This document shows positions 16,951-44,199 of a DNA stretch of 64,000 nucleotides, piece after piece; the stretch's first letter is position 1, and each line of letters starts with the position of its first letter. Source of the DNA: an uncultured Candidatus Saccharibacteria bacterium (GTDB lineage Bacteria; Patescibacteriota; Minisyncoccia; Minisyncoccales; 2-12-FULL-40-12); contig CAZFEY010000001.1 of NCBI GenBank assembly GCA_964518135.1, positions 2,856-66,855 on the forward strand, in the 5' to 3' direction. The notes below the pieces were generated by a model. It was not told the origin of the DNA, searched no databases, and was given only the letters and a program-made list of their open reading frames with translations. A program made the position numbers and the translations under genes.

Positions 16951-17035
16951 TTATTTATTTTTGAGCGTAGCGAGAAAACATTTATTTTTATCGTAAAATG
17001 ATATATAATCCGAGAAGAATAATCCATATTGCAAG

Positions 17036-17455
17036 ATGAAAAAGATAATCCTAAATATAATTTTATTGTCTTTTATAATCGGCCTACCCTACATTGCTAA
17101 CGCACAACCAGTTGGCTTAGTGCCTTGCGGTAACATTGGCGAACCACCCTGTCAACTCTGCCACATATTTATTCTCTTTAATAACATTATCTCATTCTTG
17201 CTTGTTCCTGGTAATCCCTTTGGGGGATTCCCTGTGGTACTTGCTATCGCTGGACTAATGATATTATGGTCAGGATTCTTATATATAATGAGCTTTGGGG
17301 ACCCTAAGAACCTAATCAAATCAAGAGAAATACTAAAAGCAACGGGCCTTGGATTGTTAATAGTTTATGGCGCTTGGGCTGCTGTTAACACATTGTCATG
17401 GTTCGGCATTATTCCGAATAACTGGTTTACGATTAACTGCCCTATTATTCCTTAA
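17036..17455 (+). CDS. secreted VirB2/TrbC-like pilin-like protein (stand-alone, 139 aa)
   Basis: Sec signal peptide, then hydrophobic helices separated by short polar loop 'SFGDPKNLIKSREILKATG'; paralogous to N-termini of 27978.. and 33753.. proteins. Confidence 0.45.
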   Translation: MKKIILNIILLSFIIGLPYIANAQPVGLVPCGNIGEPPCQLCHIFILFNNIISFLLVPGNPFGGFPVVLAIAGLMILWSGFLYIMSFGDPKNLIKSREILKATGLGLLIVYGAWAAVNTLSWFGIIPNNWFTINCPIIP

Positions 17456-20736: not shown

Positions 20737-23616
20737 ATGGTACAAGGCCAACAACAAACGGATAACCAAGATATTCTTAAGAAGGCCGAGATAAAAACAA
20801 TGCAGGCTGATATTTTGGCTGCCCAAAAAATATCTGACAAGAACGACCTAGCTACTCGAGAAAGAGAAATGGCAAGAAAAATAACAGAACAGAAAAGGGC
20901 CGAGGAAGAACGTAAAAAGATTGCCGCTCAAACCATAAAGAAAACTTTACCGACGCAAACTAAAAAAATTGACGAAAAAAAAGTGATCAATGATGGAGAA
21001 GAAGCTATTAAAAAATTTGAGGCGGATAGGAGGAAAGAAGAATCAGATGTTATAGCGAAAACAAACGTAAAAATCCAAGAAGAACAAAGAAAAAAAGAAA
21101 TAGCCGAACGGAAGGCCGCTGAAGAAAGGCGTCTCGAAGAAGAAAAAAAACAGAGAAATGCAGAAAAAGAAAAATTAAAACAAATAGAAGAAGCCCGAAA
21201 AAAAGAGATCGTAGCAATACGACAAAGAGAAGAAGCGATACTCGCGGCCAAAGAAGCAAGACGCATCAGGGAAAGGGAAATACTGCAATTAGAAGAAGAA
21301 AAAATATTATTAGAAAAAGGGCTTCAAGATATTTTGAGCAGAAGAGTTCCGCTAGAAACAGAAATAAACCAGCTTGCCAAGCGAGAATCTCAATTGCAGG
21401 AAAATTTGAATGAAGTCTCGAAAAGAGAAGATGAGGTTGAAAGAGAAGTAAAAACAATTGAAGCTAAGGAAAAATCGGCCGACACAGAAGAGAAGAAGAA
21501 ACTTGAACAACAAAGATGGGAAATTGAAGAGAAGAGAAGGAGAGTAGAGAAAGAAAGGTGGGAATGGGAGGCAGAAATCGGTAAAGTAAAGGACCAAAAA
21601 AGAGAGGTTAGTTTAAGGTATAATAGACTTTTGACTAACGAAGAGGAAATCCTAGAGAGAAAAAGGGCAATCGCTGACAAACAAGAAGAAATTAAAATAG
21701 AAAATGAGAAAATAGAATTAGAAAAAGAATTACAAAGGTTAAAAGAGAAAAAATCTCCCCTAGAGATAGAGATTAATGCCATTTTGGAGAGAGAATCTCA
21801 ACTCCAAGCGAAACTAGACAGCGTTTCGAGTAAAGAGAATGACATTGAAAGAGAAATAAGCTCAATTGAAGACAGAGAAAAATCTACTGGCGTGACCGAG
21901 GGGAAAAAAGAGCTTGAACAACAAAGATGGGAGATTGAAGAGAAAAGAAGGGGAGTGGAAAAAGAGAGGTGGGAATGGGAGGCAGAAATCGGAAAAGTAA
22001 AGGACGACCTAAAAAGAATAGAAAATGAGTATCAAAAAATTCTCTTAAGAGAAAAGGAATTATTATTAAAACTACACCCAGAACAAATAACTAATTTATC
22101 TAACCGATTGGAAGAGGAAGAGAAAGCTACAATACCTACAAAAACAACACCTCCCTTACAAAAAAGAGAAAGGGCAGATGTTAAAATTTCCGAAAACAAA
22201 CCCGTAAAACCAGAACCCCAGAACAAGGAAGAAAACCTTGCCGACTCGACTATTTCTCAAAAGACAGCCGCGCCAGAAAAAACGCAACTGGACAACCATC
22301 AAGAGAAACAACATCTAGACGAGACAATAAATAGACAAATGGAAGTGCTAAAAGAGATCGAACGTCTTAAGGCAGAAACAGAAAAAGAAAAACAACAGAC
22401 AAGAAACGAAGGAGAGGTAGCGCAAACACAGGTAAATATAACCGTTGAATCAGCCCACGAGCAAGAGTCTGGGCAGACAACAACCATCCAATCCCAACCA
22501 GAACCGGCACTAGATCAGGAAGAGATAACCACGCATCAAGTACCACCCCAACCAATACCCATTAAACCGCAGAAATTCTGGATGAAAGAAGAGGCTAAAG
22601 CATTTGAAACGCAAACCAGAGATCCTCAAAAAGAAAGCGAGATTAAAAAGCGACTTGATGAAATCCAACAACAAGAAGAAATAGAAAGAAAAGAATTTTT
22701 AGAAAGGATTCAAGGAAGTGAATCGAAAAAATCGACCATTGGAAGAATTAATAAAGAAAATATTCCTATCAAGCCTCAACCAGAAACACCTGAAATTATT
22801 ACATCTATAGCGCCTCGGCCCTCTGCTTTTGGTAAATTCTGGTCAAGAATTTTAGCAACAATGATAGTTGTCGCCATCTTCGCTGGTGTGTTTTGGTTAA
22901 TTTACTGGACATTCTTTATCCGAAAAGCGCAAATCAAAACAACCTGGTGTGAAAACGAAAAAGTCCAGATACCGCAATCTGAATTCTCTCCAGAAAGATG
23001 CGTTCCGCCACCCATCGTGATTCCTGAAATTCGCGTTCCGCCAGATTTAATTAGTATTGCAACCAGAAAGGAAATTGTTGTTCCGGAAAAAGGAGATCCA
23101 TTAAAGGAGCTGGCAAGATTTTTAGAGGAAAATGGCGAAGAACTAGAACAAAATAAGCCTACCAGGATAGTAATAAAGAGCCTCGATAAAAAGGAAGTGC
23201 TTGGTTTTGAGGATTTTTTCAATCTTTTTAAGGCAACTGTGCCAGATGGTTTTTATTCTAAAATCAACAAAGACTTTAATCTTCTTATCTACCCACAGAA
23301 AGAAGGACGAAGATGGGGCATAATAAGCCAAATTACAACCCAAGAAGGCGTTGATGTTGTTGGCGAAACAGTAACTATGCTTCGGCTTTGGGAAGACAAA
23401 ATGGATCAAAATCTCCAAACTCTTTTTGTATTTTTTGGAAAAACAGAACCAGCCATAAATGATTTCTTCACCAGAGTGCCGTATGGAAACATAAACATAC
23501 GTTGCCAGACTTTCAGCAAAGAGGATTTTGGCGATTGCTACGCTATAAAAGGAAACAGTTTCGTTTTAACCACCTCCTTAGAAAGTATAAAAAAAATATT
23601 AGACGAAATAAAATAA
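20737..23616 (+). CDS. K/E-rich coiled-coil membrane protein (959 aa) with internal about 136-aa duplication, one TM helix, and C-terminal domain bearing the WCENE...ERCVPPP Cys-pair motif
   Basis: Heptad-like charged repeats; 'QQRWEIEEKRR.VEKERWEWEAEIGKVKD' present twice; TM 'ILATMIVVAIFAGVFWLIYWTFFI' followed by motif shared with giant protein. Confidence 0.65.
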   Translation: MVQGQQQTDNQDILKKAEIKTMQADILAAQKISDKNDLATREREMARKITEQKRAEEERKKIAAQTIKKTLPTQTKKIDEKKVINDGEEAIKKFEADRRKEESDVIAKTNVKIQEEQRKKEIAERKAAEERRLEEEKKQRNAEKEKLKQIEEARKKEIVAIRQREEAILAAKEARRIREREILQLEEEKILLEKGLQDILSRRVPLETEINQLAKRESQLQENLNEVSKREDEVEREVKTIEAKEKSADTEEKKKLEQQRWEIEEKRRRVEKERWEWEAEIGKVKDQKREVSLRYNRLLTNEEEILERKRAIADKQEEIKIENEKIELEKELQRLKEKKSPLEIEINAILERESQLQAKLDSVSSKENDIEREISSIEDREKSTGVTEGKKELEQQRWEIEEKRRGVEKERWEWEAEIGKVKDDLKRIENEYQKILLREKELLLKLHPEQITNLSNRLEEEEKATIPTKTTPPLQKRERADVKISENKPVKPEPQNKEENLADSTISQKTAAPEKTQLDNHQEKQHLDETINRQMEVLKEIERLKAETEKEKQQTRNEGEVAQTQVNITVESAHEQESGQTTTIQSQPEPALDQEEITTHQVPPQPIPIKPQKFWMKEEAKAFETQTRDPQKESEIKKRLDEIQQQEEIERKEFLERIQGSESKKSTIGRINKENIPIKPQPETPEIITSIAPRPSAFGKFWSRILATMIVVAIFAGVFWLIYWTFFIRKAQIKTTWCENEKVQIPQSEFSPERCVPPPIVIPEIRVPPDLISIATRKEIVVPEKGDPLKELARFLEENGEELEQNKPTRIVIKSLDKKEVLGFEDFFNLFKATVPDGFYSKINKDFNLLIYPQKEGRRWGIISQITTQEGVDVVGETVTMLRLWEDKMDQNLQTLFVFFGKTEPAINDFFTRVPYGNINIRCQTFSKEDFGDCYAIKGNSFVLTTSLESIKKILDEIK

Positions 23617-25662: not shown

Positions 25663-26790
25663 TTACCTAGCGAATGGGTTTGTCCCTCCTCTCACTTCAA
25701 AGTGCAAGTGACAACCAGTTGAAATTCCTGCACCACTCATTCCTGGCTTACCGCCCGTTAAGGCTATAACCTGACCTTGCGAAACTTGCTCGCCCGGACC
25801 CACCATGCTTGTAGCTAAGTGACCATAAAAAGTAACTAGTCCATTGGGATGTAAAATCATAATGTAATTTCCTGCTCCACCGTTCCAGCCATATCTTACT
25901 CTTTGTACTTGTCCTCCGGCCGCTGCATAGATTGGACTATTGCATTTACTGGCAAAATCAACGGCGTTGTGCCAGTGTAAACCTTGAGTTAAAGAGCAAG
26001 ACCCAACAACAGGACATATAAAATAGCTTGAACCGACCGGTATTTGATTCGATGGAACTATTGGCTTGGCAGCTACTGATTGTGACGGCATTTTTCCGCC
26101 CGGCACAACCAAGATGTCTCCTATATAAATATCTTCTTCTTCGGCTAACTCGTTAAAAGCAATAATATCATTCGTCTCTACTTTATAGGTTTTAGCAATA
26201 GCGGCCAAAGTATCGCCCTTTTTAACATAATGTGCCACGCCAGAAATAGGCAAGATGATCAATGACTGGCCCGGCTTTATCTTTGCGCCCCTGCCTAGCT
26301 CATTAGCCCAAAGCAATGTTTCTAAAGTGATATCGAACTTTTCGGCTATACTATTCAAGCTATCTCCATCTTCAACAATATACTCAACAATTTCTGCTCT
26401 GTCGCTCGAAAAATCTTCTTCTTCTCCGATTATCGCACCAAGCGTCTGGCCCGTTGTCATTACCGGAGGAGTAAAAGCCACCAAGCTGTTATTTTGCACA
26501 AATAGCGTATCTGGAGTTTCTTTAACTGCATCGGTCGTCGCCAGACCAACAAAAAGATCGGTTTTATTAACCGAACTTTTTATATCTTCATCCAATAATA
26601 TATTTAACAAATCAACGTTTAATAACGATGCTTGTAAATTATCCTTGACCAATAAGGCGCTTGTTTTCCGCGCAGAAAAAACATTGAAAACAGTAGCGAA
26701 TAAAAGCAAAATTACTACCACCAGCCATAAATGGGAAAAAGGGTCTTTGGCAGATCCTTTTCTCTTAAGCAAACTGATTGTTTTTCTCAT
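25663..26790 (-). CDS. LysM-domain M23 family peptidoglycan endopeptidase
   Basis: Two LysM repeats ('GDSLNSIAEKFDITLETLLWANEL', 'GDTLAAIAKTYKVETNDIIAFNEL'); M23 core 'HNAVDFA...GNYIMILHPNGLVTFYGHL...GCHLHFEV'; start taken at MRKTISLL signal anchor. Confidence 0.85.
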   Translation of the reverse strand: MRKTISLLKRKGSAKDPFSHLWLVVVILLLFATVFNVFSARKTSALLVKDNLQASLLNVDLLNILLDEDIKSSVNKTDLFVGLATTDAVKETPDTLFVQNNSLVAFTPPVMTTGQTLGAIIGEEEDFSSDRAEIVEYIVEDGDSLNSIAEKFDITLETLLWANELGRGAKIKPGQSLIILPISGVAHYVKKGDTLAAIAKTYKVETNDIIAFNELAEEEDIYIGDILVVPGGKMPSQSVAAKPIVPSNQIPVGSSYFICPVVGSCSLTQGLHWHNAVDFASKCNSPIYAAAGGQVQRVRYGWNGGAGNYIMILHPNGLVTFYGHLATSMVGPGEQVSQGQVIALTGGKPGMSGAGISTGCHLHFEVRGGTNPFAR

Positions 26791-26935
26791 TAAAGAGGCT
26801 AAAGCCTCAAAAGAGATTTGTTGTCTAGGAATATTTCTTAAAAATCTTTCAAAAAAATCTTTCCCGACTAGCCTAAGTGGCACGACGCACCACCGGCAAA
26901 CTATGTTTATTAGTTTATCACTACCAGGCATTAAG

Positions 26936-27060
26936 TCAACCCCGTTAGAAACCATCTGTGAAAATTTGCTTACTAAGCATAGAAGCCGTGAGGCGACTCC
27001 GTCTCATAGCTCTCTGTAAAATCGATGGCCATCGCGGGCTTCTAACGGGGTCAACTCCGA
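26936..27060. promoter_or_regulatory. structured element: perfect 11-bp inverted repeat (ccccgttagaa / ttctaacgggg) closing about 100 nt containing 12-bp palindrome cgatggccatcg; candidate riboswitch/leader or small RNA
   Basis: Arms at 26940-26950 and 27040-27050; internal hairpins (gcttagtaagc); lies in 5' leader region of M23 peptidase (minus) and upstream of rsmA (plus). Confidence 0.35.
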
Positions 27061-27977: not shown

Positions 27978-30533
27978 ATGGCTAATAAAAAAATAGTTCT
28001 AGCAATGCTGCTCGCCGTAGTTATTGTTCCTGTATTCTTTTCTTTTGCTTGGGCACAGAACGATAGAGAGCTAGAAGTTGACTACCCGGACATTGGCGGA
28101 ATAGCAGGACCAACCAAAGTTACCGTAGGGCTTCCAGAATACATTAGATATATTTTTAATTTCGTTGTTGGGTTTGCTGGTGTTATTTTATTATACGCCC
28201 TGATAAGGGGAGGCCTTTCTTATTTAGCCTCGGGGGCAAATGTGGCAAAATTAAAAACGGCAAGAGAGCAACTCGGCTCTGTCTTTTTGGGAATAGTAAT
28301 CCTTTTGTCATCTTACATCATCTTAACTACCATTAATCCTCAATTGGCTATTTTAAACCTTCCAATTTTTAGCAATCTGAATTTGGGAGGAGGAACTCCT
28401 GCAACATTCACCACAGACGAAGCGTCTATAATCTATTATGAGATTCCGATTGGACAAATGATAAAAAATGGGGTCTGGAAAACGAGCGCGATAGAAGCAA
28501 TGACCAACATAGATGAAACGGGAATATTAGACGAATTTGAAAAATTTATTACAAGCGAAATTACCACAAGAGATGGAATTTCTATTAAAAGAATCTCTGA
28601 TTTAAATAAATACCTTAAAACATTAGCCGAGAGTTGTAGCTGTAGTGAGATGTCTCCGATCTGTACCAAGCCTAAAAACTTTACCATTGATGTTGGCTGT
28701 ACCGGAGATCCTTGTGAAAAAAATAGAGACAAAATAGAAGACGTCCTAGACATCAATAGCAAGCTAATAGAAAATCCTGACGAGCCAATAAATAGCCTTA
28801 AAGAATTCAATGACAAAATAAAGGATAATCCTGATGAGCCAATAAATAGCCTTAAAGAATTCCTAGAAGAACAAGATAAATTTTTTAACAATCTTGATGT
28901 CCAAGAAAAATTTTCTGAGTGCTTAGAGACTGGGTTTTTAATAACACAGGGTGAATATTTACAATCCGTACGCTACTACGAAGATCAAGGAATTAAAACA
29001 GAGGTCGTCCAGAGCTATATGCCTTCTAAAGGCGACCCATTTACATTTTATTGCACCGTTGGCGGCACAATGATGGATATACCGATAAAGCAAGACGAAC
29101 TTTCCGTACCTATATCGGGTGGAACTGGGTTTGACTTACCGCCATCCGCAACAGAAGAGCCTGAACCATTGAGCTGTCCCGGCGTGGTGCCTATTGGCGA
29201 AATAATAGACGTTGTTGGATCTGCTTCTGTGATATCGAATGAAAACTTAACAGGGCTTACGGAGTTAATCGACGAACTAACAATCGAGATGAGAGATATG
29301 GCCGATAGAATATCGGAGTGCAACGAAGACAGTTGCAAATCACCACAGACTGGCAAGAATGCTGCTAATTGTAAGTGCTTTCCTAATCCTTGTTATATAC
29401 CTCCCGGCGTCCCCTGTCCTCCCGGTTTGGGATTTTGCGTTGGACAGATGTGCATGACCCCTTGTCTCAAGCCATCTCCTGGTAGTTGTGAGGCTAAAAA
29501 TTTTGATGCCCCAAACTATGGCTCACCATGCCCTTTGGGAAGATTGGCTGAATCTTCTGAACCAGGAGATCCCCCAGACATAAAGTCAATGGAAAAAACC
29601 ATTAAAGACATTAAGAGAACTGAAAATACAATTCTTGAAGCTATCGAAGGGCTAAGGCAAGGCTTTTCCAATACGCCCTACGTTGTTGAAACTCCGCAAC
29701 AAATCCCAATAGACTTAGTAGAGGGAGTCAAATGGGTTATGGGATTTTGTAGAAATGAAGATATTGTCAATCCAACCTGGGCAATGGTAAATTGCGGCTT
29801 GGCTACCGGCAATATAGGACCTGATGGCAATGAAATTGCTGGATGCGATCTGCGAAGTTTCTTTTGCTGTACTGGCGATAGGGCAGCAGCAGAAAACGCA
29901 AGACTATCATATTCTAGCGGTGGAGGTGGAGGCGGGGGTGGACAATATGCCGCAACCTATTACACCCCATACGTTGGTCCACCAGTAGCGACTGATGGCG
30001 CATGCAACCAAAGAATCATTACGCAAGCATCAAAATATGACGGAATACTTTATAGTCAAGGATGGAATAAGTCAACATATCCTGCTGAATGCCGAACTCG
30101 AAGTAGGGGCCATTGTTACACGGCTGCGGAAAATAAAGGACCAGAAGGAGTACAATGCCTAGATTGTTCTGGTTTCGCTAGTCGCGTTTATAGAGATCTT
30201 GGTATTCTCCCGCTAGCACCAACTGACCCGAGCGCAGGATGGTGTCATCATGTAGCAGCAATAATAGCCAATAGGTCATATTTCTACGAAATATCAGCGC
30301 AAGATATATTACCAGGAGATTTAGTTACGAATGGCTCTGGTTCTGAAGGAGACCCTATGCATGTTGTTATTTATGAAAGCGGTGATGCCTCAAGAAGATT
30401 TTGGACGTGGCAAGAAGGAGGCGGAGGCGGTGGTGGCCTTCCCGGCTGTAATGGTAAAGTATGTAGAACAGAAAGGACCGCGCGAAGCAATCAGCGATAC
30501 TGGAGAAGAGTAAATGAATGCGATACGTTCTAA
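27978..30533 (+). CDS. secreted fusion protein: VirB2/TrbC-like two-helix pilin-like N-domain + Cys-rich ectodomain + C-terminal NlpC/P60 peptidoglycan hydrolase domain flanked by Gly8 runs
   Basis: Signal peptide; 'YIRYIFNFVVGFAGVILLY...ASGANVAKLKTAREQLGSVFLGIVILLSSYI..TINPQL'; NlpC/P60 Cys 'CLDCSGFASRVY' and His 'GDLV...HVVIY'; GGGGGGGG at aa about 650 and about 815. Confidence 0.6.
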   Translation: MANKKIVLAMLLAVVIVPVFFSFAWAQNDRELEVDYPDIGGIAGPTKVTVGLPEYIRYIFNFVVGFAGVILLYALIRGGLSYLASGANVAKLKTAREQLGSVFLGIVILLSSYIILTTINPQLAILNLPIFSNLNLGGGTPATFTTDEASIIYYEIPIGQMIKNGVWKTSAIEAMTNIDETGILDEFEKFITSEITTRDGISIKRISDLNKYLKTLAESCSCSEMSPICTKPKNFTIDVGCTGDPCEKNRDKIEDVLDINSKLIENPDEPINSLKEFNDKIKDNPDEPINSLKEFLEEQDKFFNNLDVQEKFSECLETGFLITQGEYLQSVRYYEDQGIKTEVVQSYMPSKGDPFTFYCTVGGTMMDIPIKQDELSVPISGGTGFDLPPSATEEPEPLSCPGVVPIGEIIDVVGSASVISNENLTGLTELIDELTIEMRDMADRISECNEDSCKSPQTGKNAANCKCFPNPCYIPPGVPCPPGLGFCVGQMCMTPCLKPSPGSCEAKNFDAPNYGSPCPLGRLAESSEPGDPPDIKSMEKTIKDIKRTENTILEAIEGLRQGFSNTPYVVETPQQIPIDLVEGVKWVMGFCRNEDIVNPTWAMVNCGLATGNIGPDGNEIAGCDLRSFFCCTGDRAAAENARLSYSSGGGGGGGGQYAATYYTPYVGPPVATDGACNQRIITQASKYDGILYSQGWNKSTYPAECRTRSRGHCYTAAENKGPEGVQCLDCSGFASRVYRDLGILPLAPTDPSAGWCHHVAAIIANRSYFYEISAQDILPGDLVTNGSGSEGDPMHVVIYESGDASRRFWTWQEGGGGGGGLPGCNGKVCRTERTARSNQRYWRRVNECDTF
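28773..28863 (+). repeat. two 36-bp near-identical direct repeats (aatcctga[c/t]gagccaataaatagccttaaagaattc) 55 bp apart, in-frame (ENPDEPINSLKEF x2)
   Basis: Direct reading of sequence; 1 mismatch. Confidence 0.8.
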
Positions 30534-30592: not shown

Positions 30593-33500
30593 ATGAATAA
30601 AAAAAGTATTTATAATGTATTTAAAAAAACTAGCGGCCTGACCATCCCTCTTTTCGCATTAATCTTAGCCACGATTGCGATCTTGTTAGTTGCAACCAAA
30701 AGTGCGGCTCAAATACCATCTCTTTTTCTGCCAAATTTTCCAAGCAGATTAATGTATTTATCGGACGCGATAGCTAATACTAGCCAAGAATTAATCAGTC
30801 CAAATCAAGACATGATAGATCTTGTTAATGAATGTAGCTGCGAATTCTCACAATCCCAATGCAAACAAATTATAACAAATGGACAACCGTCTGGCTGTGT
30901 AACGATTGGGGCTATCGGTAAACCTTGTTCTTTGGTATCTCCAGGAGAAGAAACAGAACCTACGATCCGCAGTTTACAGCGAAAATCTCGTAATTTGGCA
31001 TTGGATTTATCTTACTTGCGAAAACTTCTAATTAAAGAAAAAGAGGCGGGACTAGAAAGACAACTTGAAACATTAAGAAAAGATCCAAGTGCGGGCATTG
31101 ACGACGCTCAAGACCTAAGAGATGCAATTAATATCATCCTTGGAACTTCTGCCGATTACGCAGACGGCGCCCTTTCTAAGGTCATAACAAAAGCGGAGGC
31201 TAATCTAGAAAGACCAAAACAGTGCTCGACCAATGCTTGTACCCCTCATTGCGGCCCAGGAGATAGTTTCTCTTTAAGTGAGTATATGTGTTTACCAGCT
31301 CTTACCTTCGAACTTGGCGAGGTAAAACCAACCGTTATTAATTTCCATGCTGGAATTGAGATTGAGGATTGGGAGCTTGGCAAGATAGAAATAACCAATG
31401 TTAAATTAAATCTTCCAGAGTCAATTGACATACCCGAACTTCCGGGACTAAAAATGCCATCTTTTTCGATATCTGTGCCGGAAATCAAAATTGACTGTCC
31501 AACCAAAAAACAAGAAATTTCCTTCCAAACTCCACAACCCTCTCTGCCAAAAACACCGACGATGAAATTATCCTGCCCAACCTATAATACGACTGCTAGC
31601 TATCAATACCCATCAGACCTTCAACCGGGCAGTGAAAAGTATCGAGAATTCGAATGGTTTTTGGAAACTTTCTCTTGGTTATCGGGCATATGTATGGATG
31701 CGGTATGGGGAGATGGAGATTTACCGGATAGCCAAAAAATGCAATACCCCGATAAATTCAATCAGTCTTTAACTACTTGTTTCGACCCATTTAATGTTGC
31801 TAATAAATTAATACAGGAGTGTAACGAACAGTATGCGAACTATCATCCATCCAACCCACCAAGCGGTCCACCGCCAGTTTATCCTGCCTGTGAATATTGG
31901 GTTAACAAACAACCGGCCGAGTTTGGCAGTATAACAGAAGAACATTGTTTTAAATTTTTTGAAGGATTTGCCGATCCATCAGGAACGCAGGGGTGGGAAG
32001 ATATCGACGGAAACCCTGCAACGAACGATCCAAAAACATTTGACCCTGGAACAAAAGATAAAATATATGACTATCTCGAGCAAAAATACGGAATCACAAT
32101 AGACGACGAACCCCAAGACCAATGTCGTGATAAACTAGACCCTCTACCAACCCTTATTGATTCTTGCAATAAACTTCGCGAGCTACATCCCCAGAAACAA
32201 GCTATAGAATTCCCCGATCAATGTAAGATCTTACCAATATTTTACAATCTTCCAGACTATATCCCTCCCCATCAAATTGCTAGTCCAGAAGTTCTTGAGT
32301 TATTTGCTCAATCTCAATTATTATCAGGGCAACAAATGAACGACCTGCCAAGCAAATCGATTTCCGGTTGCCCCTCTATTGGAGCTCCTTCAATACCTAA
32401 AATACCATTATCTAAGTACTCGATAATTATTCCCGATATCAAGCTACCAACTTTTAAATTGGGTCCGTTCTTCAGAATAAAATTACCTAGTCTAATTTTT
32501 GAGGATTTGATATTTGAAGATATTGAACTATGCAATCTGGATGATTGCCAATTCAAATTCCCCAATTTAAACTTTGAAGCACCAACGTTAACAATACCTC
32601 AAATAGACGTTCCATCGATTAAGCTTGAGAGCTTTAACGTACCTGGCATTCCTAACGATATCGGCAAGGGCATAGAGATAAGTATAAGCCCTATGGAATT
32701 TCAGCCATTTGATTTTGACTTTTCACAGCTGATTAATTTAAATTCTCTGGTTTCTCCAGAATTCCAGACTCCCGATATTTCTCTCCCCAAACCGAAACTG
32801 ACGTTTGGCTTTGAGGGACTTGATATTGATTTCACAAGTTTGCTATCTGGATTATTTGATTTTAACCTTCCGCCAAACCCTGGTCTCGCATGCCTCCCAG
32901 AATTTTGGAATATAGATGGCATACCTATCGCATTCGACTTCCCTGACTATATTTTTTCTTGGCCTGCATTCCCAGATATCCCTGAAATTCCTGGCTGCGC
33001 GGATGCTAAAAAATTCTGCAAAGACATCAATGGTTCTATTCAGAAAATAACTGAACAGGCTGGAGAAATTCAAGAAGTTGTTAATGGCACTATCCAAACT
33101 GAAATCCAAGGCGTTCTTAATATGTTCAAAAATGAGATAGAAAACCAATTAACGGGCGCTATCGAAAGCAAGCTTAACGATATCGCAACAGAAATTAAAA
33201 AAGAAATTTACAATTGGATCCAAAGCAATGCTCCACCATCAACAAGCCTACCCTCAGCTCCGATACCGGGAGTATTCCCAGTAGCTGATGGGCTTTCTTG
33301 TCAAGGACTACCGCCTTTAACTATTGACCTAAAAGATATTCTTGGCGACCTATATATTAACACGATAGAATTGGAAGATTATTTACCACCGGGGTTGAAT
33401 CTGGAAAAAATTTCTATTCCCTGGCCAGATGAGTTAAAAAACTTAGATCTTTCAACGATAAACAATCCTCTATGCTCGGACTGTAAAGGATTAAGTTATG

Positions 33501-33766
33501 AACTACCAACCGTTCCTCTCTCTGGTCTTAAATATGAAAAAAGTGTACCAATTGAGCTCCCCGGATTCCAATATCCTTCTCCACAAATTAATTTCGGGAG
33601 TCCTTTACCAAATGCAACTGCCTGTGTTAGCCAACCGCCGACTGGGAACGCTTGCGGCGCAGCTCCTGGCGACATGCAAACCGACCTTACTGGTTCTGAT
33701 GGCATACAAGAGCTCAGCCAAAAACTTAACGATGCTTCTAAAAAGATAAGGGATGTATTACAATAA
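30593..33766 (+). CDS. large (1057 aa) N-terminally membrane-anchored Cys-rich extracellular protein
   Basis: Single N-terminal TM; shares 'ECSC...C...GC...PC' module with 27978.. protein; many Pro/Cys; no catalytic motif recognised. Confidence 0.55.
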   Translation: MNKKSIYNVFKKTSGLTIPLFALILATIAILLVATKSAAQIPSLFLPNFPSRLMYLSDAIANTSQELISPNQDMIDLVNECSCEFSQSQCKQIITNGQPSGCVTIGAIGKPCSLVSPGEETEPTIRSLQRKSRNLALDLSYLRKLLIKEKEAGLERQLETLRKDPSAGIDDAQDLRDAINIILGTSADYADGALSKVITKAEANLERPKQCSTNACTPHCGPGDSFSLSEYMCLPALTFELGEVKPTVINFHAGIEIEDWELGKIEITNVKLNLPESIDIPELPGLKMPSFSISVPEIKIDCPTKKQEISFQTPQPSLPKTPTMKLSCPTYNTTASYQYPSDLQPGSEKYREFEWFLETFSWLSGICMDAVWGDGDLPDSQKMQYPDKFNQSLTTCFDPFNVANKLIQECNEQYANYHPSNPPSGPPPVYPACEYWVNKQPAEFGSITEEHCFKFFEGFADPSGTQGWEDIDGNPATNDPKTFDPGTKDKIYDYLEQKYGITIDDEPQDQCRDKLDPLPTLIDSCNKLRELHPQKQAIEFPDQCKILPIFYNLPDYIPPHQIASPEVLELFAQSQLLSGQQMNDLPSKSISGCPSIGAPSIPKIPLSKYSIIIPDIKLPTFKLGPFFRIKLPSLIFEDLIFEDIELCNLDDCQFKFPNLNFEAPTLTIPQIDVPSIKLESFNVPGIPNDIGKGIEISISPMEFQPFDFDFSQLINLNSLVSPEFQTPDISLPKPKLTFGFEGLDIDFTSLLSGLFDFNLPPNPGLACLPEFWNIDGIPIAFDFPDYIFSWPAFPDIPEIPGCADAKKFCKDINGSIQKITEQAGEIQEVVNGTIQTEIQGVLNMFKNEIENQLTGAIESKLNDIATEIKKEIYNWIQSNAPPSTSLPSAPIPGVFPVADGLSCQGLPPLTIDLKDILGDLYINTIELEDYLPPGLNLEKISIPWPDELKNLDLSTINNPLCSDCKGLSYELPTVPLSGLKYEKSVPIELPGFQYPSPQINFGSPLPNATACVSQPPTGNACGAAPGDMQTDLTGSDGIQELSQKLNDASKKIRDVLQ

Positions 33767-33776
33767 CATAACATCA

Positions 33777-35465
33777 ATGAAGCAGGAAAAAGATAAAATT
33801 AATAAAACCGTCTTTCTTGTGATCGCAATTTTGTTTTTGTCTTTTTCTTTTAGCGATTATGCAGTAGCGGCATTAGCTAAAAAATGTGGCCCCGATAATC
33901 CTAGCGACCCCGCTTGTCTCCCCGGACAAAAGTGCGTAGAACAAGAATTGGGATCACCACCCGAAACAGAGTGGAGGTGTGCCAGGCCATTGGAAATTAT
34001 TTACCCTCAAATCCCAGGACAACCTGCGACAACAACGCCAGAAACGGTTGCTACTGGCCTCTCTCAATACTTTAGATATATTTTCCTATTTGCAGTTTTT
34101 CTTATCGGATTAGTAATCCTGGCCGTTTTTGTTTATTACGGAACAAGATATATGTCGTTGGCTTCGACCGGAAACGTGTCCGGACTCGCCGATGCCAAGC
34201 AAGGTATTAGCGCGGCTCTATTAGGAACTGCAATCTTGGTGTGCTCCTATGTTATATTTAATACTATAAATCCACAACTAACTATCCTTTCATTGCCAAG
34301 CGCGGCAATCTTAGAACAAGTAATCCCACCCGGCGTTTACGTCTGCAATTACGAATACAGCGGTAATTCAGTTACAAGCAAGGCTGTCAGTGAAAATCTT
34401 ATAGCCGATGACAGTATTGGCACTATTCTGTCTGCTTACATTTCTAAAGCAGGGGAAGAGCAAATCGAGATTGTTAAATTAATGCAAAGCATATTTGTTG
34501 ATCCGGACAATAATGATCATACCTGTCCAAAGGTCAATTTTTCTGGTAATTTCCAAAACTTTGCAGTCGAAGAAAAGAATACAATGTTTGTTGTCCCATC
34601 TATAAGATTTTCTGCTCAACTTAAAGCTGGTAGTACCGACGAATACGAGTATGTAAAAAAACCGTCCTACGAATACGGCTTGATTTTACACGAGAAAGAT
34701 GATTTAAGAGGTAAATGTTTAGAATATCCGAATATTAACGATTACGGTGGACAAATTTACACCGAGGTCACGTTTGAAAATGGAAGAATGATGATTGGCG
34801 ATACTCCTTATAGCACCGGAGGGACATATGTGAATCCAATAAAGGACTTTGAGGCGGGGGTGGGAATTCCAAACAATAACTTTTCCAAGAATCGCGCCAG
34901 ATCAATAACAATTTTTAAAAGACCAGAAATAAAACCATCCTCAACAGCCCAAGGATTAACATTACATATGTGCGCTGATTACGACAGAACCGGAATGTGT
35001 CCACAGTCTCTGTATGATGCTGGGGCAATAGACACGACAACGGGGGAACCTAAATATCCAGCTAGTGCTAATTTCCCACCTAACTTAGCACCGCCAGCAG
35101 ACCCTAAAGATACAGACGTTTATTCTCTTTATTCCAGTGATCCCAATTTGCCCATCGACCCTCGCTTAGAGAACGTAGCTCCGGGGACAGGAAACGGTTA
35201 TGGTATACGATCAACTCGAATCGATCCCGACAATTCAGTATTCGCGATTTTAATGGATGCCGAGAATAATTGCTCGATTCTTAAAGGCGATAATCCCGAT
35301 ATTGGAAATATAGCAATCAATAAATGTGATTTTGACGTCGATCAACAGGTAGGCGGTCGCTGTGACTCAAAACACGGTCTTTTGTGGTGGCACTGGGGCG
35401 GATTCACTGATAAATGCGTGCCCTGCGTTACCACAATACAAGTTTTTGAAGGTAAAGTATTGTAA
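33777..35465 (+). CDS. secreted fusion protein: VirB2/TrbC-like pilin-like domain + about 400-aa C-terminal ectodomain
   Basis: Signal peptide, 'YFRYIFLFAVFLIGLVILAVFVYY...ASTGNVSGLADAKQGISAALLGTAILVCSYVIFNTINPQL' aligns with 27978.. N-domain; start taken at MKQEKDK. Confidence 0.55.
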   Translation: MKQEKDKINKTVFLVIAILFLSFSFSDYAVAALAKKCGPDNPSDPACLPGQKCVEQELGSPPETEWRCARPLEIIYPQIPGQPATTTPETVATGLSQYFRYIFLFAVFLIGLVILAVFVYYGTRYMSLASTGNVSGLADAKQGISAALLGTAILVCSYVIFNTINPQLTILSLPSAAILEQVIPPGVYVCNYEYSGNSVTSKAVSENLIADDSIGTILSAYISKAGEEQIEIVKLMQSIFVDPDNNDHTCPKVNFSGNFQNFAVEEKNTMFVVPSIRFSAQLKAGSTDEYEYVKKPSYEYGLILHEKDDLRGKCLEYPNINDYGGQIYTEVTFENGRMMIGDTPYSTGGTYVNPIKDFEAGVGIPNNNFSKNRARSITIFKRPEIKPSSTAQGLTLHMCADYDRTGMCPQSLYDAGAIDTTTGEPKYPASANFPPNLAPPADPKDTDVYSLYSSDPNLPIDPRLENVAPGTGNGYGIRSTRIDPDNSVFAILMDAENNCSILKGDNPDIGNIAINKCDFDVDQQVGGRCDSKHGLLWWHWGGFTDKCVPCVTTIQVFEGKVL

Positions 35466-35486: not shown

Positions 35487-37070
35487 ATGATAGAGCGTCT
35501 TATCGCCGTATTCACGGCTATCCCAACCCTTATAATTGCGGCTATCTATCTGCTCTTTATTTTGATTACTGGGTTTTTTGTGTCTGTGGCAAGTGGTCTT
35601 TTAGAATGGATAATCAGCCCAAACTTTATTTCTTTAAGCTATACCAAGCCCTGTCTAGCAATCAACAATTACCAGCCTACCGGATCCGCAGATACTTGCA
35701 ACCCCGTAATTGGGCTTGGTTTAGATACTATCCAGCAATTTGTTAACATGTTATTGGTGTTGATACTAATATATATAGCGCTCTCAATAGCCCTTAGAGC
35801 TGGCGGAGGCAAAGCTGAAAAATTATTTCCGCAACTAATCATTGTGGCTCTCTTAGTCAATTTCGCTCCAGTTTTCATAGGTTTAGTTGTTGATGCGGCC
35901 AATATTTTAATGAATTATTTCTTAACCCCTTTACAGGGCGGATTTAGCCAGATCGGGGCTCAGTTATCTGTATTTTGGGATGCGATAGTAAAAAACTTCT
36001 CGAAAATATGGTCTGACCTACCAAGCCAAATGACGCTATTGGGCATGGGATCTGTAATAGTATTTGTAAATATTACCGTGGCGACGATCTTATTCTTGTT
36101 CGCAGGAATCCTTTTTGTCAGGTTTATAGCTATCTGGGTAATTGTCATCTTGTCTCCTCTGGCTTTTGTCTTTTCGATCCTACCTCAAACCAATAATCTG
36201 TATAAAATGTGGGAAAAACAGCTAGTCCAGTGGTCATTTGTAGGAATACCGATCGCGTTTTTTATGTATCTCGGCGTTTCAAGCCTATCTGTACTAACGC
36301 AGAACTTTAATGCCGCCTCGATACAAGCCCCGAATTTAAATTCTTCAGTATCGCAGCTTTTGAGTCAATTACTCCCTTATTTCACTGTGGTTATTTTCTT
36401 GGTAATAGGACTCTTTGTGGGAATTTCCATGTCGGCGATGGGCGCTAACGCTGTCGTAAAAGGTATGGGAAAGGGAGCCGCTGCGGTTGGGAACTGGAGC
36501 AAAGGAAAGATTGGCGACTTAGGAAACAGGGTCAGGCAAGGCGCAAAGAATCGGGCAGGGCAATTCACATTTGCTCAAAGACAATCTATGAATGCCGGAA
36601 GAACAAAATTACAAGCCTTTACGTCTGGAACAATGGCAGCGGCTGGTTGGACTCATTCGAAACAGAAAAGCACCGGTATGGTATACCGTGCCGCAAGAAA
36701 AACAGGCTACGGAAAATTGCGCGCAGCATGGGCAACTACCGCTGCGACCACTGGTCTCAATAGAGGTATAAATACTGCTTTAAGAGGTCAAATTAAGCTT
36801 CAAGCATATAAAAAGGGACTGGCGCAAGGCATGACCAAAAAACAAGCAGTTAAGTACGCCCAACAATACACCGCGCTCTTGCAAAAACTACCTCAAAAAC
36901 GAAAAGATAGTGCGAAAAAGGCATTTAAGAAGGGAGCTGGAACAATATTATGGAGAGCTCCCATGGCGGTAACTAGAGGAATGAGTGGCGCTATCTTATT
37001 GGCTTTAAAAGAAATATATAAAGAATTAAGCAAAAAGAAGAAAACAAAAAAAACGAAAAAAAAGCCATAA
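35487..37070 (+). CDS. polytopic membrane protein, VirB6/TrbL-like by architecture (6-7 TM + basic hydrophilic C-tail)
   Basis: Multiple hydrophobic helices then long Lys/Ala/Gly-rich tail ending KKKTKKTKKKP; position within T4SS-like locus. Confidence 0.4.
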   Translation: MIERLIAVFTAIPTLIIAAIYLLFILITGFFVSVASGLLEWIISPNFISLSYTKPCLAINNYQPTGSADTCNPVIGLGLDTIQQFVNMLLVLILIYIALSIALRAGGGKAEKLFPQLIIVALLVNFAPVFIGLVVDAANILMNYFLTPLQGGFSQIGAQLSVFWDAIVKNFSKIWSDLPSQMTLLGMGSVIVFVNITVATILFLFAGILFVRFIAIWVIVILSPLAFVFSILPQTNNLYKMWEKQLVQWSFVGIPIAFFMYLGVSSLSVLTQNFNAASIQAPNLNSSVSQLLSQLLPYFTVVIFLVIGLFVGISMSAMGANAVVKGMGKGAAAVGNWSKGKIGDLGNRVRQGAKNRAGQFTFAQRQSMNAGRTKLQAFTSGTMAAAGWTHSKQKSTGMVYRAARKTGYGKLRAAWATTAATTGLNRGINTALRGQIKLQAYKKGLAQGMTKKQAVKYAQQYTALLQKLPQKRKDSAKKAFKKGAGTILWRAPMAVTRGMSGAILLALKEIYKELSKKKKTKKTKKKP

Positions 37071-39205: not shown

Positions 39206-39622
39206 ATGCAATTTGATGTCCCTCAATTTGTTGAGTCTGAAACCAAAATAGCTGGATCTTTAACATTTAGACAGGTTTTATATCTTGCTGCTGCTGGTAT
39301 TGTCGTAATGGTTTCTTATTTCGGCCTGGCCAAAACCAACCTTGGTTTATTTATATTTATTACTGTTTTGGCAATCGTTTTTGGTTTGGCGTTCGCATTC
39401 CTTAAGATTGGTGGATTCTCTCTGGCAGTCTTTCTGAAGAATCTAATATTTTTCTTGATATCTTCCAAGGTTTATCTGTGGAGAAAACCTGCTGTGGCAC
39501 CCAAGGTTATCCAGAAAAGAATCGCTTCACCAGCAGAAGCAGAGAAAGAGAAAACCCTTAAAATGGGTGGAGAAAGCCGACTTAACAAGCTTTCAACCCA
39601 AATAGAAACAAACACCCAATAA
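39206..39622 (+). CDS. PrgI/VirB3-like small two-TM protein
   Basis: 'LTFRQVLYLAAAGIVVM' then second TM; size and position immediately upstream of VirB4 as in Gram-positive T4SS. Confidence 0.45.
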   Translation: MQFDVPQFVESETKIAGSLTFRQVLYLAAAGIVVMVSYFGLAKTNLGLFIFITVLAIVFGLAFAFLKIGGFSLAVFLKNLIFFLISSKVYLWRKPAVAPKVIQKRIASPAEAEKEKTLKMGGESRLNKLSTQIETNTQ

Positions 39623-39627
39623 CAACT

Positions 39628-40272
39628 ATGGCCGAACTTACTACGCAAAAGTTTTTAGAAATATCTCAAATCAAGGAAGGTGTTATCGTTCTGCGAAATA
39701 AAGCTCTGCGAGGAATCTTAATGGTGTCTTCGGTTAACTTCGCGTTGAAGTCTACTGACGAACAAAGCGCTATCCTGTATCAATTCCAAAGTTTTTTAAA
39801 TGCGCTCGATTTTTCGTGTCAAATAGTTGTTCAATCAAGAAGATTAAATATCACCGGTTATTTAGAAAAGTTGGAAGAACTAGAACAAAAACAAAAAAAT
39901 AAACTTTTAAAATTACAAACGAAAGAGTATAAAGATTTTATTAAACAATTGGTTGAAGAGAAAGAAATACTAACTAAAAGTTTCTTTGTGGTTGTACCAT
40001 ATTCTATTTCGGAAATGATTGGTCCTGAATCTTCCCAGAAAGGATTATTAGCGCAAGCTAAATTGCCAACTTTGACAGAAGAAAATTTCCAAAGATGCAA
40101 AACGCAACTATGGCAAAGGATGGAGTATGTGGCTCTAGGATTAAGAAGGTGCGGACTTCAATCTGTCCCCCTGACAACGCCCGAAATCGTCGAGCTTTTT
40201 TGGAGCTTACATCATCCTAAAGAAGCAGAAGTGGGATTTTACCCGGAATTTCCAATGGAATTAATTGTGTAA
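39628..40272 (+). CDS. VirB4/TrbE N-terminal-domain-like protein (separate ORF)
   Basis: 'LRGILMVSSVNFALKSTDEQSAILYQFQSFLNALDFSCQIVVQS' resembles N-terminal region of VirB4-family ATPases. Confidence 0.45.
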   Translation: MAELTTQKFLEISQIKEGVIVLRNKALRGILMVSSVNFALKSTDEQSAILYQFQSFLNALDFSCQIVVQSRRLNITGYLEKLEELEQKQKNKLLKLQTKEYKDFIKQLVEEKEILTKSFFVVVPYSISEMIGPESSQKGLLAQAKLPTLTEENFQRCKTQLWQRMEYVALGLRRCGLQSVPLTTPEIVELFWSLHHPKEAEVGFYPEFPMELIV

Positions 40273-40279
40273 TCCAATA

Positions 40280-42067
40280 ATGAAACTACCATTTTTTAAA
40301 AAAAGAGGTGAAGACCAATTAGTCGCTGAGGTTGCGCTACCAGAAACAGTGGGAATTAGCGACATTATAGCACCTTCTTCGATCGAGGTATCTCCTAATT
40401 ATGTAAAGATAGGAGAAAGATTAGCCAAAACATTTTTTATCTTTTCTTATCCTAGCTCCTTAACAACTGGGTGGTTTTCGCCAATTATCAATTTAGACAC
40501 AACAATGGATATTGGTATTTTTATTCACCCAGTAGATATGGCGCAGGTTCTTAAGCAGTTAAGGAAAAAAGTTACCGAAGTGCAGGCCGATATAATAGAA
40601 AGAGAGGAAAAAGGTTTAATTCGAGACCCTCAAACAGAAATGGCATTCCGTAATTTAGAAGAATTGCGAGAAAAATTCATATCAGCGCAAGAAAGAATGT
40701 TTAGGGTGGGTATATATATAACAATTTATGCCGACAGCGAAAAACAACTTACCGAAACCGAAGTGTTCTTAAGATCGGCGATAGAGGGTAGATTGGTTTA
40801 TTCAAAACCTGCAACGTTCCAGCAAAAAAAAGGCTTTATTTCAACTTCTCCTTACGGGATAGACGCTTTGCAAATTACCACCTCAATGAATACAGCTCCG
40901 GTATCTAGTGCTTTTCCGTTTGTATCTTTCGATTTGAGCTCGAACGACGGTATTTTATACGGAATCAACCAGCATAATAATTCCTTAATTTTATTCGATA
41001 GATTTACGCTGGAAAACTCCAACGCTGTTATCTTCGGAACTTCAGGCTCTGGAAAAAGCTATTTGGTAAAGTTGGATGCCTTACGATCTCTAATGATTGG
41101 CGCTAATGTTATTATTATTGACCCCGAAAATGAATACAAGGCCTTAGCTGATACGGTCGGAGGTTCTTTCTTTAACATTTCCCTATCTTCTAATGACCGA
41201 ATTAACCCATTTGACTTACCCCCACCAAGAGAAGGAGAAAGACCGGAAGACGTCTTAAGGTCTAACACAATGAATTTGGTCGGATTATTAAGGATTATGC
41301 TAGGAGGATTAACGCCCGAAGAAGATGCAATAATAGACAGAGCCCTTACTGAAACTTATGCCGCCAAAGACATCACGCCAGATAGTGATTTTTCTGCGGC
41401 TACACCTCCATTACTTTCGGACTTAGAAGATGTTCTATCGACAATGGAGGGTGCAGAAAACTTAACTATAAAGCTAAGAAAGTTTACTCAAGGCACTTAC
41501 TCATCGTTCTTTAATCAGCACTCTAATGTTTCTATGGATAACAATATGATCGTTTTTGGCATAAGAGACATGGAAGAACAATTAAGGCCGATTGCGATGT
41601 ATATAATTATGAGGTATATCTGGAATCAGGTTAGATCTATACTAAAAAAAAGGGTTTTGATTATAGATGAAGCATGGTGGCTTATGCAAACAGAAGATGG
41701 TGCATCTTTCTTGTATGGATTAGTAAAAAGGTCTAGAAAGTACTGGCTAGGAGTCACAACAATAACTCAAGACGTTGGCGATTTTATGAAGTCAGAATAT
41801 GGAAAACCTATCATTACCAACTCTGCATTGAAGATTTTGATGAAGCAATCTCCGGCCACAATCAATCTTGTTCAACAAACGTTTAACCTTACAGAAGAAG
41901 AAAAATATATTCTGCTTGAACCGTCTGTGGGAGAGGGCATATTCTTTGCCGGGCAAAAACATGTAGCCATAAAAGTTATGGCATCTTACACTGAAGACCA
42001 AATTATAACTACGGACCCGGGGCAATTAGCGAAAATCAAAAGAGCAAAAGCAGATTTAACCGAATAA
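40280..42067 (+). CDS. VirB4/TrbE/CagE-family type IV secretion ATPase (ATPase domain)
   Basis: Walker A 'GTSGSGKS', Walker B/'DEAW' hallmark 'VLIIDEAWWLM'; start at internal ATG. Confidence 0.85.
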   Translation: MKLPFFKKRGEDQLVAEVALPETVGISDIIAPSSIEVSPNYVKIGERLAKTFFIFSYPSSLTTGWFSPIINLDTTMDIGIFIHPVDMAQVLKQLRKKVTEVQADIIEREEKGLIRDPQTEMAFRNLEELREKFISAQERMFRVGIYITIYADSEKQLTETEVFLRSAIEGRLVYSKPATFQQKKGFISTSPYGIDALQITTSMNTAPVSSAFPFVSFDLSSNDGILYGINQHNNSLILFDRFTLENSNAVIFGTSGSGKSYLVKLDALRSLMIGANVIIIDPENEYKALADTVGGSFFNISLSSNDRINPFDLPPPREGERPEDVLRSNTMNLVGLLRIMLGGLTPEEDAIIDRALTETYAAKDITPDSDFSAATPPLLSDLEDVLSTMEGAENLTIKLRKFTQGTYSSFFNQHSNVSMDNNMIVFGIRDMEEQLRPIAMYIIMRYIWNQVRSILKKRVLIIDEAWWLMQTEDGASFLYGLVKRSRKYWLGVTTITQDVGDFMKSEYGKPIITNSALKILMKQSPATINLVQQTFNLTEEEKYILLEPSVGEGIFFAGQKHVAIKVMASYTEDQIITTDPGQLAKIKRAKADLTE

Positions 42068-43701: not shown

Positions 43702-43719
43702 AATAATCTACCTTTAGTT

Positions 43720-44043: not shown

Positions 44044-44065
44044 TAATTGGGTTGTAAAAACAAAA

Positions 44066-44199
44066 TCACGCAACCAGTCGCTGCCTTCCCTTTCTTCTAC
44101 GCCTAGCTACAACCTTTCTTCCTCCCTTAGTCGACTTCCTTTTTCTAAAGCCGTGTGTTTTTTTTCTTTTTCTTTTCTTTGGTTGATATGTAATACTCA
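44066..44199 (-). CDS. rpmH: 50S ribosomal protein L34
   Basis: Translates to [44 protein letters not shown]; not in ORF track (<60 aa). Confidence 0.85.

Follow-up and report, generated by a model that had tools for sequence, protein, structure and literature searches.

Can a pilin-like protein of a type IV secretion system (T4SS) carry its own cell-wall hydrolase? The question is raised by a 2556-nucleotide (nt) gene at 27978-30533 (+ strand) of a 64,000-nt stretch of contig CAZFEY010000001.1 (assembly GCA_964518135.1, from an uncultured Candidatus Saccharibacteria bacterium), hereafter called the window, to which all positions refer. The gene was taken from the list of open reading frames (ORFs) and encodes a protein of 851 amino acids (aa). 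An earlier note, made from the DNA letters, had described the product as an NlpC/P60 peptidoglycan hydrolase fused to a pilin-like anchor, bracketed by two Gly8 runs and possibly subject to slippage-based length variation. The fusion itself largely holds: domain searches and structural models indicate a pilin-like anchor, a Cys-rich stalk and an NlpC/P60-type peptidase domain, encoded in a T4SS gene cluster. The bracketing does not hold, and the slippage is not supported. We found 46 homologues of the 851-aa protein, in Patescibacteria, and a sequence identical to the C-terminal domain is present in one of them (P0001). We consider it reasonably probable that the protein is a membrane-tethered, extracytoplasmic cell-wall peptidase with a role of the VirB1 type, built into the chromosomal T4SS locus of Paceibacteria/Parcubacteria-type Patescibacteria.

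The C-terminal peptidase domain

For the C-terminal domain (about aa 673-851; 29994-30530, +), Pfam, profile comparison and Foldseek all agree with the earlier assignment to the NlpC/P60 type. The motifs on which that assignment had relied are indeed read in the ORF, CLDCSGFASRVY with GDLV...MHVVIY and, as quoted for the C-terminus, QCLDCSGFASRVYRDLG with PGDLV...MHVVIYE. The proposed scan against Pfam PF00877 (NLPC_P60; papain-like clan, MEROPS C40; cut-off 23 bits) gives 24.5 bits when the C-terminal 225 aa are searched alone, and the family is matched by all eight NlpC-type homologues (best E value 1.2e-8). Compared with PDB sequences, an eight-sequence family profile matched solved NlpC/P60 enzymes, among them E. 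coli MepS/Spr (E = 7e-4). In the profile alignment the DCSG and HV-IY motifs of the family fall on the corresponding motifs of MepS/Spr, DCSG and RHVGIY, which we take to hold the catalytic cysteine and histidine of that enzyme. The weak PDB profile matches include cell-wall hydrolases of Tn916-like conjugative transposons. A phmmer search of the C-terminal 227 aa against the PDB was discarded, as it returned just spurious poly-Gly linker matches to engineered receptors.

The AlphaFold2 (AF2) model of aa 627-851 has a predicted local distance difference test score (pLDDT) of 69 and a predicted template modelling score (pTM) of 0.70. When the model was compared with the PDB by Foldseek, every top match was a CHAP or NlpC/P60 peptidoglycan hydrolase (LysGH15, Acd24020, LysK, RipB, MAP1204 and RipA; entries including 4olk, 7cfl, 4csh, 3pbi and 3i86), with probabilities of 0.97-1.00 and template modelling scores of up to 0.66 when normalised by target length. 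In BFVD, which holds viral structures, the matches of the domain are CHAP domains and endolysins. The domain shares the fold class and the Cys-His-polar arrangement with MepS/Spr, RipA/RipB and the phage CHAP endolysin domains of LysGH15 and LysK, at 14-20% identity. It differs from them by a Cys-containing insertion of about 35 residues between YSQG and DCSG, and by a longer hairpin from the histidine to the third residue, which is followed by a poly-Gly loop.

The predicted catalytic residues are Cys-730 in the DCSG motif (30165-30167, +) and His-795 in the HVVIY motif (30360-30362, +), and the probable third member of the triad is Gln-812 (30411-30413, +). In the domain model Cys-730 is the first residue of helix 104-114, His-795 starts the β-strand 170-176, and Gln-812 ends the adjacent β-strand 181-186 (model numbering). 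Cys-730 is invariant in the eight long homologues and in every short relative examined, while His-795 is present in seven of the eight long homologues and is replaced by Tyr in P0007. The column of Gln-812 holds exclusively Q, E or H across the 25 relatives scanned; it lies 17 residues after the histidine in 20 of them and in the window protein. The earlier note had named the absence of a Cys-His-polar triad as the observation that would speak against a peptidase. Because the Cys, His and Q/E/H columns are conserved and the 17-residue spacing is common, with the residues placed in the model as in the family, a putative triad of Cys-730, His-795 and Gln-812 appears to be in place. The exception in P0007 (residue 735, GPGYVVIF) occurs in an otherwise well-conserved NlpC/P60 domain and could be an inactive form or a sequencing error.

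The pilin-like platform and its exchangeable modules

The protein begins with a predicted Sec signal peptide (aa 1-26; 27978-28055, +), which consists of MANKK, a hydrophobic core modelled by AF2 as a helix of residues 2-24, and the sequence AWA followed by Q; cleavage would take place after AWA (aa 26). Behind it lies a VirB2-like two-helix membrane hairpin (Pfam T4SS_pilin, PF18895; aa 30-129; 28065-28364, +), in which model helices of aa 52-84 and 89-119 are joined by the K/R-rich loop ANVAKLKTAREQ. At E<=0.1 the only Pfam matches of the 851-aa protein are NLPC_P60 and T4SS_pilin, and there is none in NCBIfam. The covalent link between the peptidase and a pilin-like domain is borne out at the level of the family: the T4SS_pilin match is weak in the window protein (E = 0.032), and T4SS_pilin is recognized in 36 of the 46 homologues at E<=0.01, with a best value of 2.6e-10. 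Moreover, the hairpin (aa 30-129) shares 44% identity with the N-terminus of a 570-aa protein of the same operon (BLASTP E = 9e-21). A Foldseek search with the full-length protein returned no pilin. We call the domain pilin-like because of the family-level Pfam evidence, its topology and its locus. In signal peptide, two hydrophobic helices, short basic loop and encoding in a T4SS locus it resembles the VirB2/TrbC-like pilins (PF18895) of Patescibacteria. Polymerisation into a pilus shaft is doubtful, however, because a typical VirB2-type pilin is several times smaller than this 851-aa protein, which, with about 730 residues C-terminal to the hairpin, is not a small polymerising subunit. The window also contains a small pilin-like ORF of 148 aa (17009-17452, +) whose T4SS_pilin match stays below the threshold (Pfam E = 3.5e-4; custom hidden Markov model (HMM) E = 4e-7); it is a possible stand-alone pilin about 10 kb upstream of the T4SS operon.

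Between the hairpin and the peptidase lies a Cys-rich middle module, predicted to be extracytoplasmic (aa 147-647; 28416-29918, +). All 33 cysteines of the protein are located after aa 130, and 24 of them are in this module. It is conserved in all 46 homologues, and about 20 cysteines are invariant or nearly so in the shared part of about 640 residues. The module is moderately well modelled, and the searches of the PDB and BFVD gave no fold match outside the C-terminal domain.

What the homologues do not share is the C-terminus: the first 640 or so residues are common to all 46, and the module behind them varies. Pfam assigns Peptidase_C39_2 in 16 cases, NLPC_P60 in seven, Peptidase_M15_4 in two and Peptidase_M74 in one. 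M15_4 and M74 (MepA-type) are dedicated murein peptidase families. A catalogue of phage lysins lists C39_2 and M15_4 among their enzymatically active domains (PMC8223927). A fifth module of about 160 aa is found in about 20 of the 46 homologues (P0019, P0022, P0026-P0033 and P0036-P0045; alignment A5); it has the motifs CP.GW.C, ISSISD, SAHYGG, SYAVD and H.H with invariant His, Asp and His residues, and gave no match in Pfam or among PDB sequences. Our guess is that it may be an unrecognised metallopeptidase, perhaps of the LAS type. Judged from these alignments, the N-terminal part of about 640 residues appears to be a constant platform and the catalytic module an exchangeable cassette.

The NlpC/P60 subtype of the window protein is rare. 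An exhaustive profile search of 1.84 billion representative proteins gave 124 matches at E<=1e-3 and 15 at E<=1e-30. The subtype also occurs in proteins of 227-583 aa with a single transmembrane segment, some of which carry what we read as a lytic-transglycosylase-like motif (GPMQF). Ten of 13 loci with the subtype also hold VirB4 or other T4SS genes within 10 kb, often one to three genes away, and the remaining three are contigs of 7.5 kb or less. The catalytic domain therefore belongs to a T4SS-linked clade, and in the lineage of the window this T4SS-linked domain appears to have been joined to the pilin-like platform. Stand-alone proteins of the P0050-P0064 type belong to the same clade (profile E values of 1e-24 to 1e-36). 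They share the signature DCSG...HVVIY...W[QEH][SE]GG(GG) and the 17-residue spacing, and are encoded one to three genes from virB4. They differ in their length of 227-583 aa, in their single transmembrane segment at the N-terminus, in having neither the pilin-like hairpin nor the Cys-rich module, and in a Gly run of one to four residues instead of seven. They are equivalent to the peptidase and lysozyme homologues that have been described downstream of virB4 in Ca. S. epibionticum (PMC12102498).

The T4SS locus and the role of the fusion protein

The membership in a T4SS locus, which the earlier note had assumed, is confirmed by the presence of PrgI, TrsD, VirB4 and a VirB6-like gene. On the same strand, KsgA, the fusion gene, the genes of a 1057-aa and a 570-aa protein, the VirB6-like gene and the gene of a 156-aa acidic protein follow each other with gaps of 22, 59, -14, 21 and 25 nt. 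The VirB6-like gene (35487-37070, +) encodes a polytopic membrane protein with a weak resemblance to CD3337/EF1877 (NCBIfam E = 0.0011, far below the cut-off). Downstream of the 156-aa gene come PrgI/VirB3 (39206-39622, +; Pfam PrgI E = 8.8e-9), TrsD (39628-40272, +; NCBIfam TrsD match) and a VirB4 ATPase of the monoderm CD1110 family (40265-42067, +; NCBIfam 370 bits at a cut-off of 325), and then yidC, rnpA, dnaA and dnaN. VirB4 thus lies 9.7 kb downstream of the fusion gene on the same strand, with PrgI, TrsD and the VirB6-like gene in between. We also considered a split or frameshifted VirB4 (39628-40272 and 40265-42067) and rejected it, as the first ORF matches the separate TrsD/TraD family, a regular component of these systems (PMC12102498). 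Directly abutting the T4SS locus is the replication origin region (42470-47097), with jag, yidC and rnpA on the - strand and dnaA and dnaN on the + strand.

According to Quinonero-Coronel et al. 2025 (PMC12102498), the T4SS of Patescibacteria consists of an MPF-FATA-like VirB4, TrsD, PrgI, VirB6 and VirB2-like pilins, and is located near dnaA and ksgA; by gene content and by its place beside the origin region the locus of the window appears to be this system. The order KsgA, fusion gene, 1057-aa gene, 570-aa gene and VirB6-like gene is kept in loci L001-L006, L034, L035 and L062, and recurs in genomes labelled Nealsonbacteria, Parcubacteria, Paceibacterota, Minisyncoccales and Wildermuthbacteria. 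L062 is a metagenome contig with a full-length homologue that is 37% identical.

The two operon partners are large proteins as well. The 1057-aa protein (30593-33766, +) is membrane-anchored and Cys-rich and has no known domain; a homology with the 851-aa protein was not supported on comparison. It is syntenic across related Patescibacteria genomes, as is a 959-aa protein (20737-23616, +), and neither has a match in Pfam, NCBIfam or PADLOC. The PADLOC defence models gave no match. The 570-aa protein (33753-35465, +) has a second pilin-like hairpin (aa 78-182; custom HMM E = 1e-29) and a different ectodomain of about 390 aa, which is without a Pfam match and syntenic in related loci. The operon thus encodes two large pilin-like fusion proteins.

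How might such a protein work? In the reading that we favour, it would be exported via Sec, and the signal peptide would be cut after AWA (aa 26). The VirB2-like hairpin (aa 52-119) would remain as the membrane anchor, its short K/R-rich loop facing the cytoplasm. Because the signal peptide is presumably cleaved and the basic loop inside, the residues after aa ~120 should be extracellular, which would place the remaining 730 or so residues outside the cell. The module of 500 residues and 24 cysteines, presumably disulfide-bonded, would act as a stalk or scaffold, and the disordered linker that starts with the Gly8 run would let the C-terminal domain swing. The NlpC/P60 domain would then cut the stem peptides of peptidoglycan locally, so that the channel or pilus of the T4SS could cross the wall, which is the job of a VirB1-type enzyme.

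Several observations weigh against this reading. On the full-length protein the NLPC_P60 match reaches 21.8 bits (E = 2e-4), slightly below the cut-off, and T4SS_pilin on the 851-aa protein alone has 14.7 bits at E = 0.032 against a cut-off of 26.6. A profile of the N-terminus compared with PDB sequences found no solved VirB2/TraA pilin, just non-significant matches to transmembrane hairpins. Unlike PrgK, TraG and CwlT, the protein contains no glycosidase (SLT, muramidase or glucosaminidase) or LytM domain detectable by Pfam at E<=0.1 or by NCBIfam. Because about 20 of the 46 homologues carry the fifth module, the C-terminal module may not always be a wall hydrolase. Finally, two genes upstream a gene with two LysM repeats and an M23 peptidase (25663-26955, -), whose synteny is conserved in many loci, could instead supply the wall-opening function.

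Is the wall that is cut the bacterium's own? The same architecture could be a host-directed lytic warhead, in which the peptidase on its stalk of about 500 residues cuts host peptidoglycan where epibiont and host are in contact, and the cassettes match the walls of the hosts. T4SS genes and pilins of Patescibacteria are essential for epibiotic growth (PMC10633639; PMC12857230), and the long extracellular module and the flexible Gly8 tether would give reach. The platform is conserved while the C-terminal Pfam modules belong to three unrelated folds (papain-like NlpC/P60 and C39_2; M15_4; M74) in addition to the fifth module, and NlpC/P60-CHAP, C39_2 and M15_4 are domain types of phage lysins, which act on the walls of other cells. 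The observations fit own wall and host wall alike, however: cassette swaps are equally compatible with changes in the bacterium's own peptidoglycan, and the stand-alone relatives of the NlpC/P60 clade resemble ordinary VirB1-type enzymes beside virB4. We regard a host-directed function as a real, if minor, possibility; if it were true, the type of cassette would track the peptidoglycan chemistry of the host. We also offer, tentatively and as a rather doubtful proposal, a combination of both ideas, in which, in Paceibacteria-type Patescibacteria, the VirB1 function that has been reported as absent is built into a VirB2-like protein; with its pilin-derived anchor and disulfide-rich stalk this protein would breach the host wall by the exchangeable cassette at its tip and form, together with the 570-aa and 1057-aa proteins, a new extracellular T4SS superstructure that replaces a simple pilus.

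A function away from the wall seems quite improbable to us. The domain could act on proteins, as a protease, transglutaminase or acyltransferase that processes or cross-links pilin-like subunits or operon partners, for instance, or it could be a dead binding module like RipD, a non-catalytic NlpC/P60 protein that is among the fold matches. The commonest assigned C-terminal module of the family, C39_2, has as its namesake the C39 family of bacteriocin-processing proteases, the NlpC/P60 superfamily includes non-peptidoglycan enzymes, and P0007 has Tyr in place of His. On the other side, the window protein and almost all relatives retain the Cys, the His and the polar third residue, M15_4 and M74 sit at the same position in sister proteins, and the best sequence and fold matches are peptidoglycan hydrolases.

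How does the proposed VirB1-type peptidase compare with known systems? Membrane-anchored CHAP/NlpC/P60 hydrolases encoded by T4SSs are well known in monoderm conjugation, as in PrgK, TraG and CwlT (PMC12102498). The monoderm VirB1-type hydrolases (PrgK of pCF10, TraG of pIP501, CwlT of ICEBs1, and Orf14 of Tn916 or Orf17 of the conjugative transposon CTn) are like the fusion protein in lying in a T4SS cluster with a CD1110/MPF-FATA-type VirB4 and in combining an N-terminal membrane anchor with a CHAP/NlpC/P60 cysteine peptidase domain. Their anchor is a single transmembrane helix, whereas here it is predicted to be a cleaved signal peptide followed by a VirB2-like hairpin; in addition, a 500-residue Cys-rich module is inserted and the catalytic module is exchangeable among close homologues. 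The possession of VirB2-like pilins makes the T4SS of Patescibacteria unusual for a monoderm system (PMC12857230), and in the single system tested it is indispensable for the epibiotic lifestyle (PMC10633639). In the literature searched we found no description of a lytic enzyme that a 500-residue Cys-rich module joins covalently to a VirB2-like domain, of an exchangeable catalytic cassette on such a platform, or of an operon that also encodes a second pilin-like fusion. The components are thus of known kinds, and it is the architecture of the T4SS-associated wall hydrolase that is probably new, although domain databases probably list it implicitly.

The 2025 survey infers that pilus biogenesis in most Patescibacteria needs no VirB1 homologue (PMC12102498). 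For at least the Paceibacteria-type loci, the fusion family offers an alternative, in which the lytic enzyme is fused to the VirB2-like domain; separate scoring of pilins and hydrolases would be expected to overlook it. A swappable cassette on a constant platform of 640 residues would provide a handle on the question of which wall is cut, own or host, and the cassettes offer expressible domains from uncultivated organisms. By comparison, the poly-Gly and repeat features are minor: a linker, an enlarged loop at the active site and a duplication specific to the lineage.

Glycine runs, duplication and length variation

The two Gly runs far exceed what chance would give: no other run of at least six Gly occurs in any frame of the window (GC content 39%), and a run of seven occurred in one of 20,000 shuffles of the protein. 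The first is a Gly8 run, as the earlier note had it, encoded by GGT GGA GGT GGA GGC GGG GGT GGA (codons 648-655); it is located at 29919-29942 (+), 6 nt away from the position 29925-29948 given there. The second is not a Gly8 run at 30417-30440: it has seven residues (codons 814-820, GGA GGC GGA GGC GGT GGT GGC; 30417-30437, +), and the eighth codon, CTT, encodes Leu. The only other run of at least five Gly in the window is a Gly5 in a giant ORF of 2390 aa (5554-12726, -).

Do the two runs bracket the peptidase domain? Ahead of the Gly8 run lie the invariant FFCC motif (aa 628-631) and a short helix, and the run opens a stretch (aa 648-672) with pLDDT below 50. This stretch varies in length and sequence, none of the homologues aligned has a Gly run there, and the C-terminal modules of the family diverge exactly at this position. 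By alignment and model, the Gly8 run is a non-conserved flexible inter-domain linker ahead of the peptidase domain. The Gly7 run starts two residues after Gln-812, low pLDDT around it is confined to aa 816-819, and two confidently modelled β-strands of the domain then follow. At the same position the relatives have W/L-[QEH]-[SE]-G(1-4), with exactly GGGG in many stand-alone relatives. Because the relatives carry one to four Gly there and two strands follow, the Gly7 run is better described as an expanded loop than as a bracket, namely as an expansion by 3-6 residues of a clade-conserved Gly loop near the active site. The second run is internal to the catalytic domain, which leaves the Gly8 run as the one linker.

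The 36-bp repeats of the earlier note are real, and they are the near-identical cores of a larger unit. The cores (28773-28808 and 28827-28862) are 36 nt each, identical at 35 of 36 positions and 18 nt apart; according to TRF and a repeat finder they belong to a 54-bp unit present twice at 81-85% identity (28748-28862, +). The unit encodes an 18-aa duplication, NPDEPINSLKEF-NDKIKD-NPDEPINSLKEF, which is an insertion relative to all nine homologues aligned.

Because the Gly7 run exceeds that of the relatives and the 18-aa duplication is unique to the lineage, expansions have occurred. For length variation by slippage, as the earlier note had suggested, we compared further, independent assemblies of this population, which come from several groundwater samples and include NCBI GCA_000992935.1. 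Three of them, from different samples (L073, L074 and L080), are identical to the window over the whole gene (2556/2556 nt), with no difference at either Gly run or at the 54-bp duplication. Glycine is encoded by mixed codons, with perfect tandem tracts of at most 12 nt and G homopolymers of at most 5. Metagenome contigs were also scanned for variants in Gly8 length, by exact flanks around a variable spacer, and none was found.

In other assemblies the contig ends and gaps within the gene are not randomly placed. They cluster at the 54-bp repeat, where L075 ends at 28755 and where L058, at 28775, shows 33 nt of deviating sequence and then a gap of 10 N; at a loop (29069-29191); and at the Gly8 run, where L076 breaks off at 29939 and L081, from the same run, begins at 29912. 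These breaks could reflect minor alleles or, just as well, the behaviour of the assembler at a 27-nt exact word, at GC-rich low complexity or at coverage dips. That the GGN runs and the 54-bp duplication form a contingency locus, slipping in replication to give linker, loop and stalk length variants in the population, is very improbable: a Gly7 run longer by 3-6 residues than in any relative, a lineage-unique duplication and the breaks at the repeat (L075, L058) and at Gly8 (L076, L081) stand against three fully identical assemblies, mixed codons in short tracts, repeat copies of just 81-85% identity, an empty variable-spacer scan, and the fact that de Bruijn assemblies can break at a shared exact word of 27 nt and at GC-rich low complexity even where no real variation exists.

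The scaffold L058 is otherwise 99.98-100% identical to the window. At its positions 2124-2166, the 33 nt encode KYIIEELKKES and the first repeat copy reads NPEEP instead of NPDEP, which represents either an alternative longer allele or a scaffolding artefact. The disagreements in the loop lie in a low-confidence, poorly conserved region (aa ~365-405; aa 369-393 have a pLDDT below 50): the contigs L077 and L078 stop at 29069, positions 29070-29135 are a gap in L072 (L072 11952-11961), and L058 lacks an in-frame segment of 48 nt (29144-29191, +; L058 2537-2540), which takes out the invariant Cys-400 and Pro-401. These differences may reflect alleles in the population.

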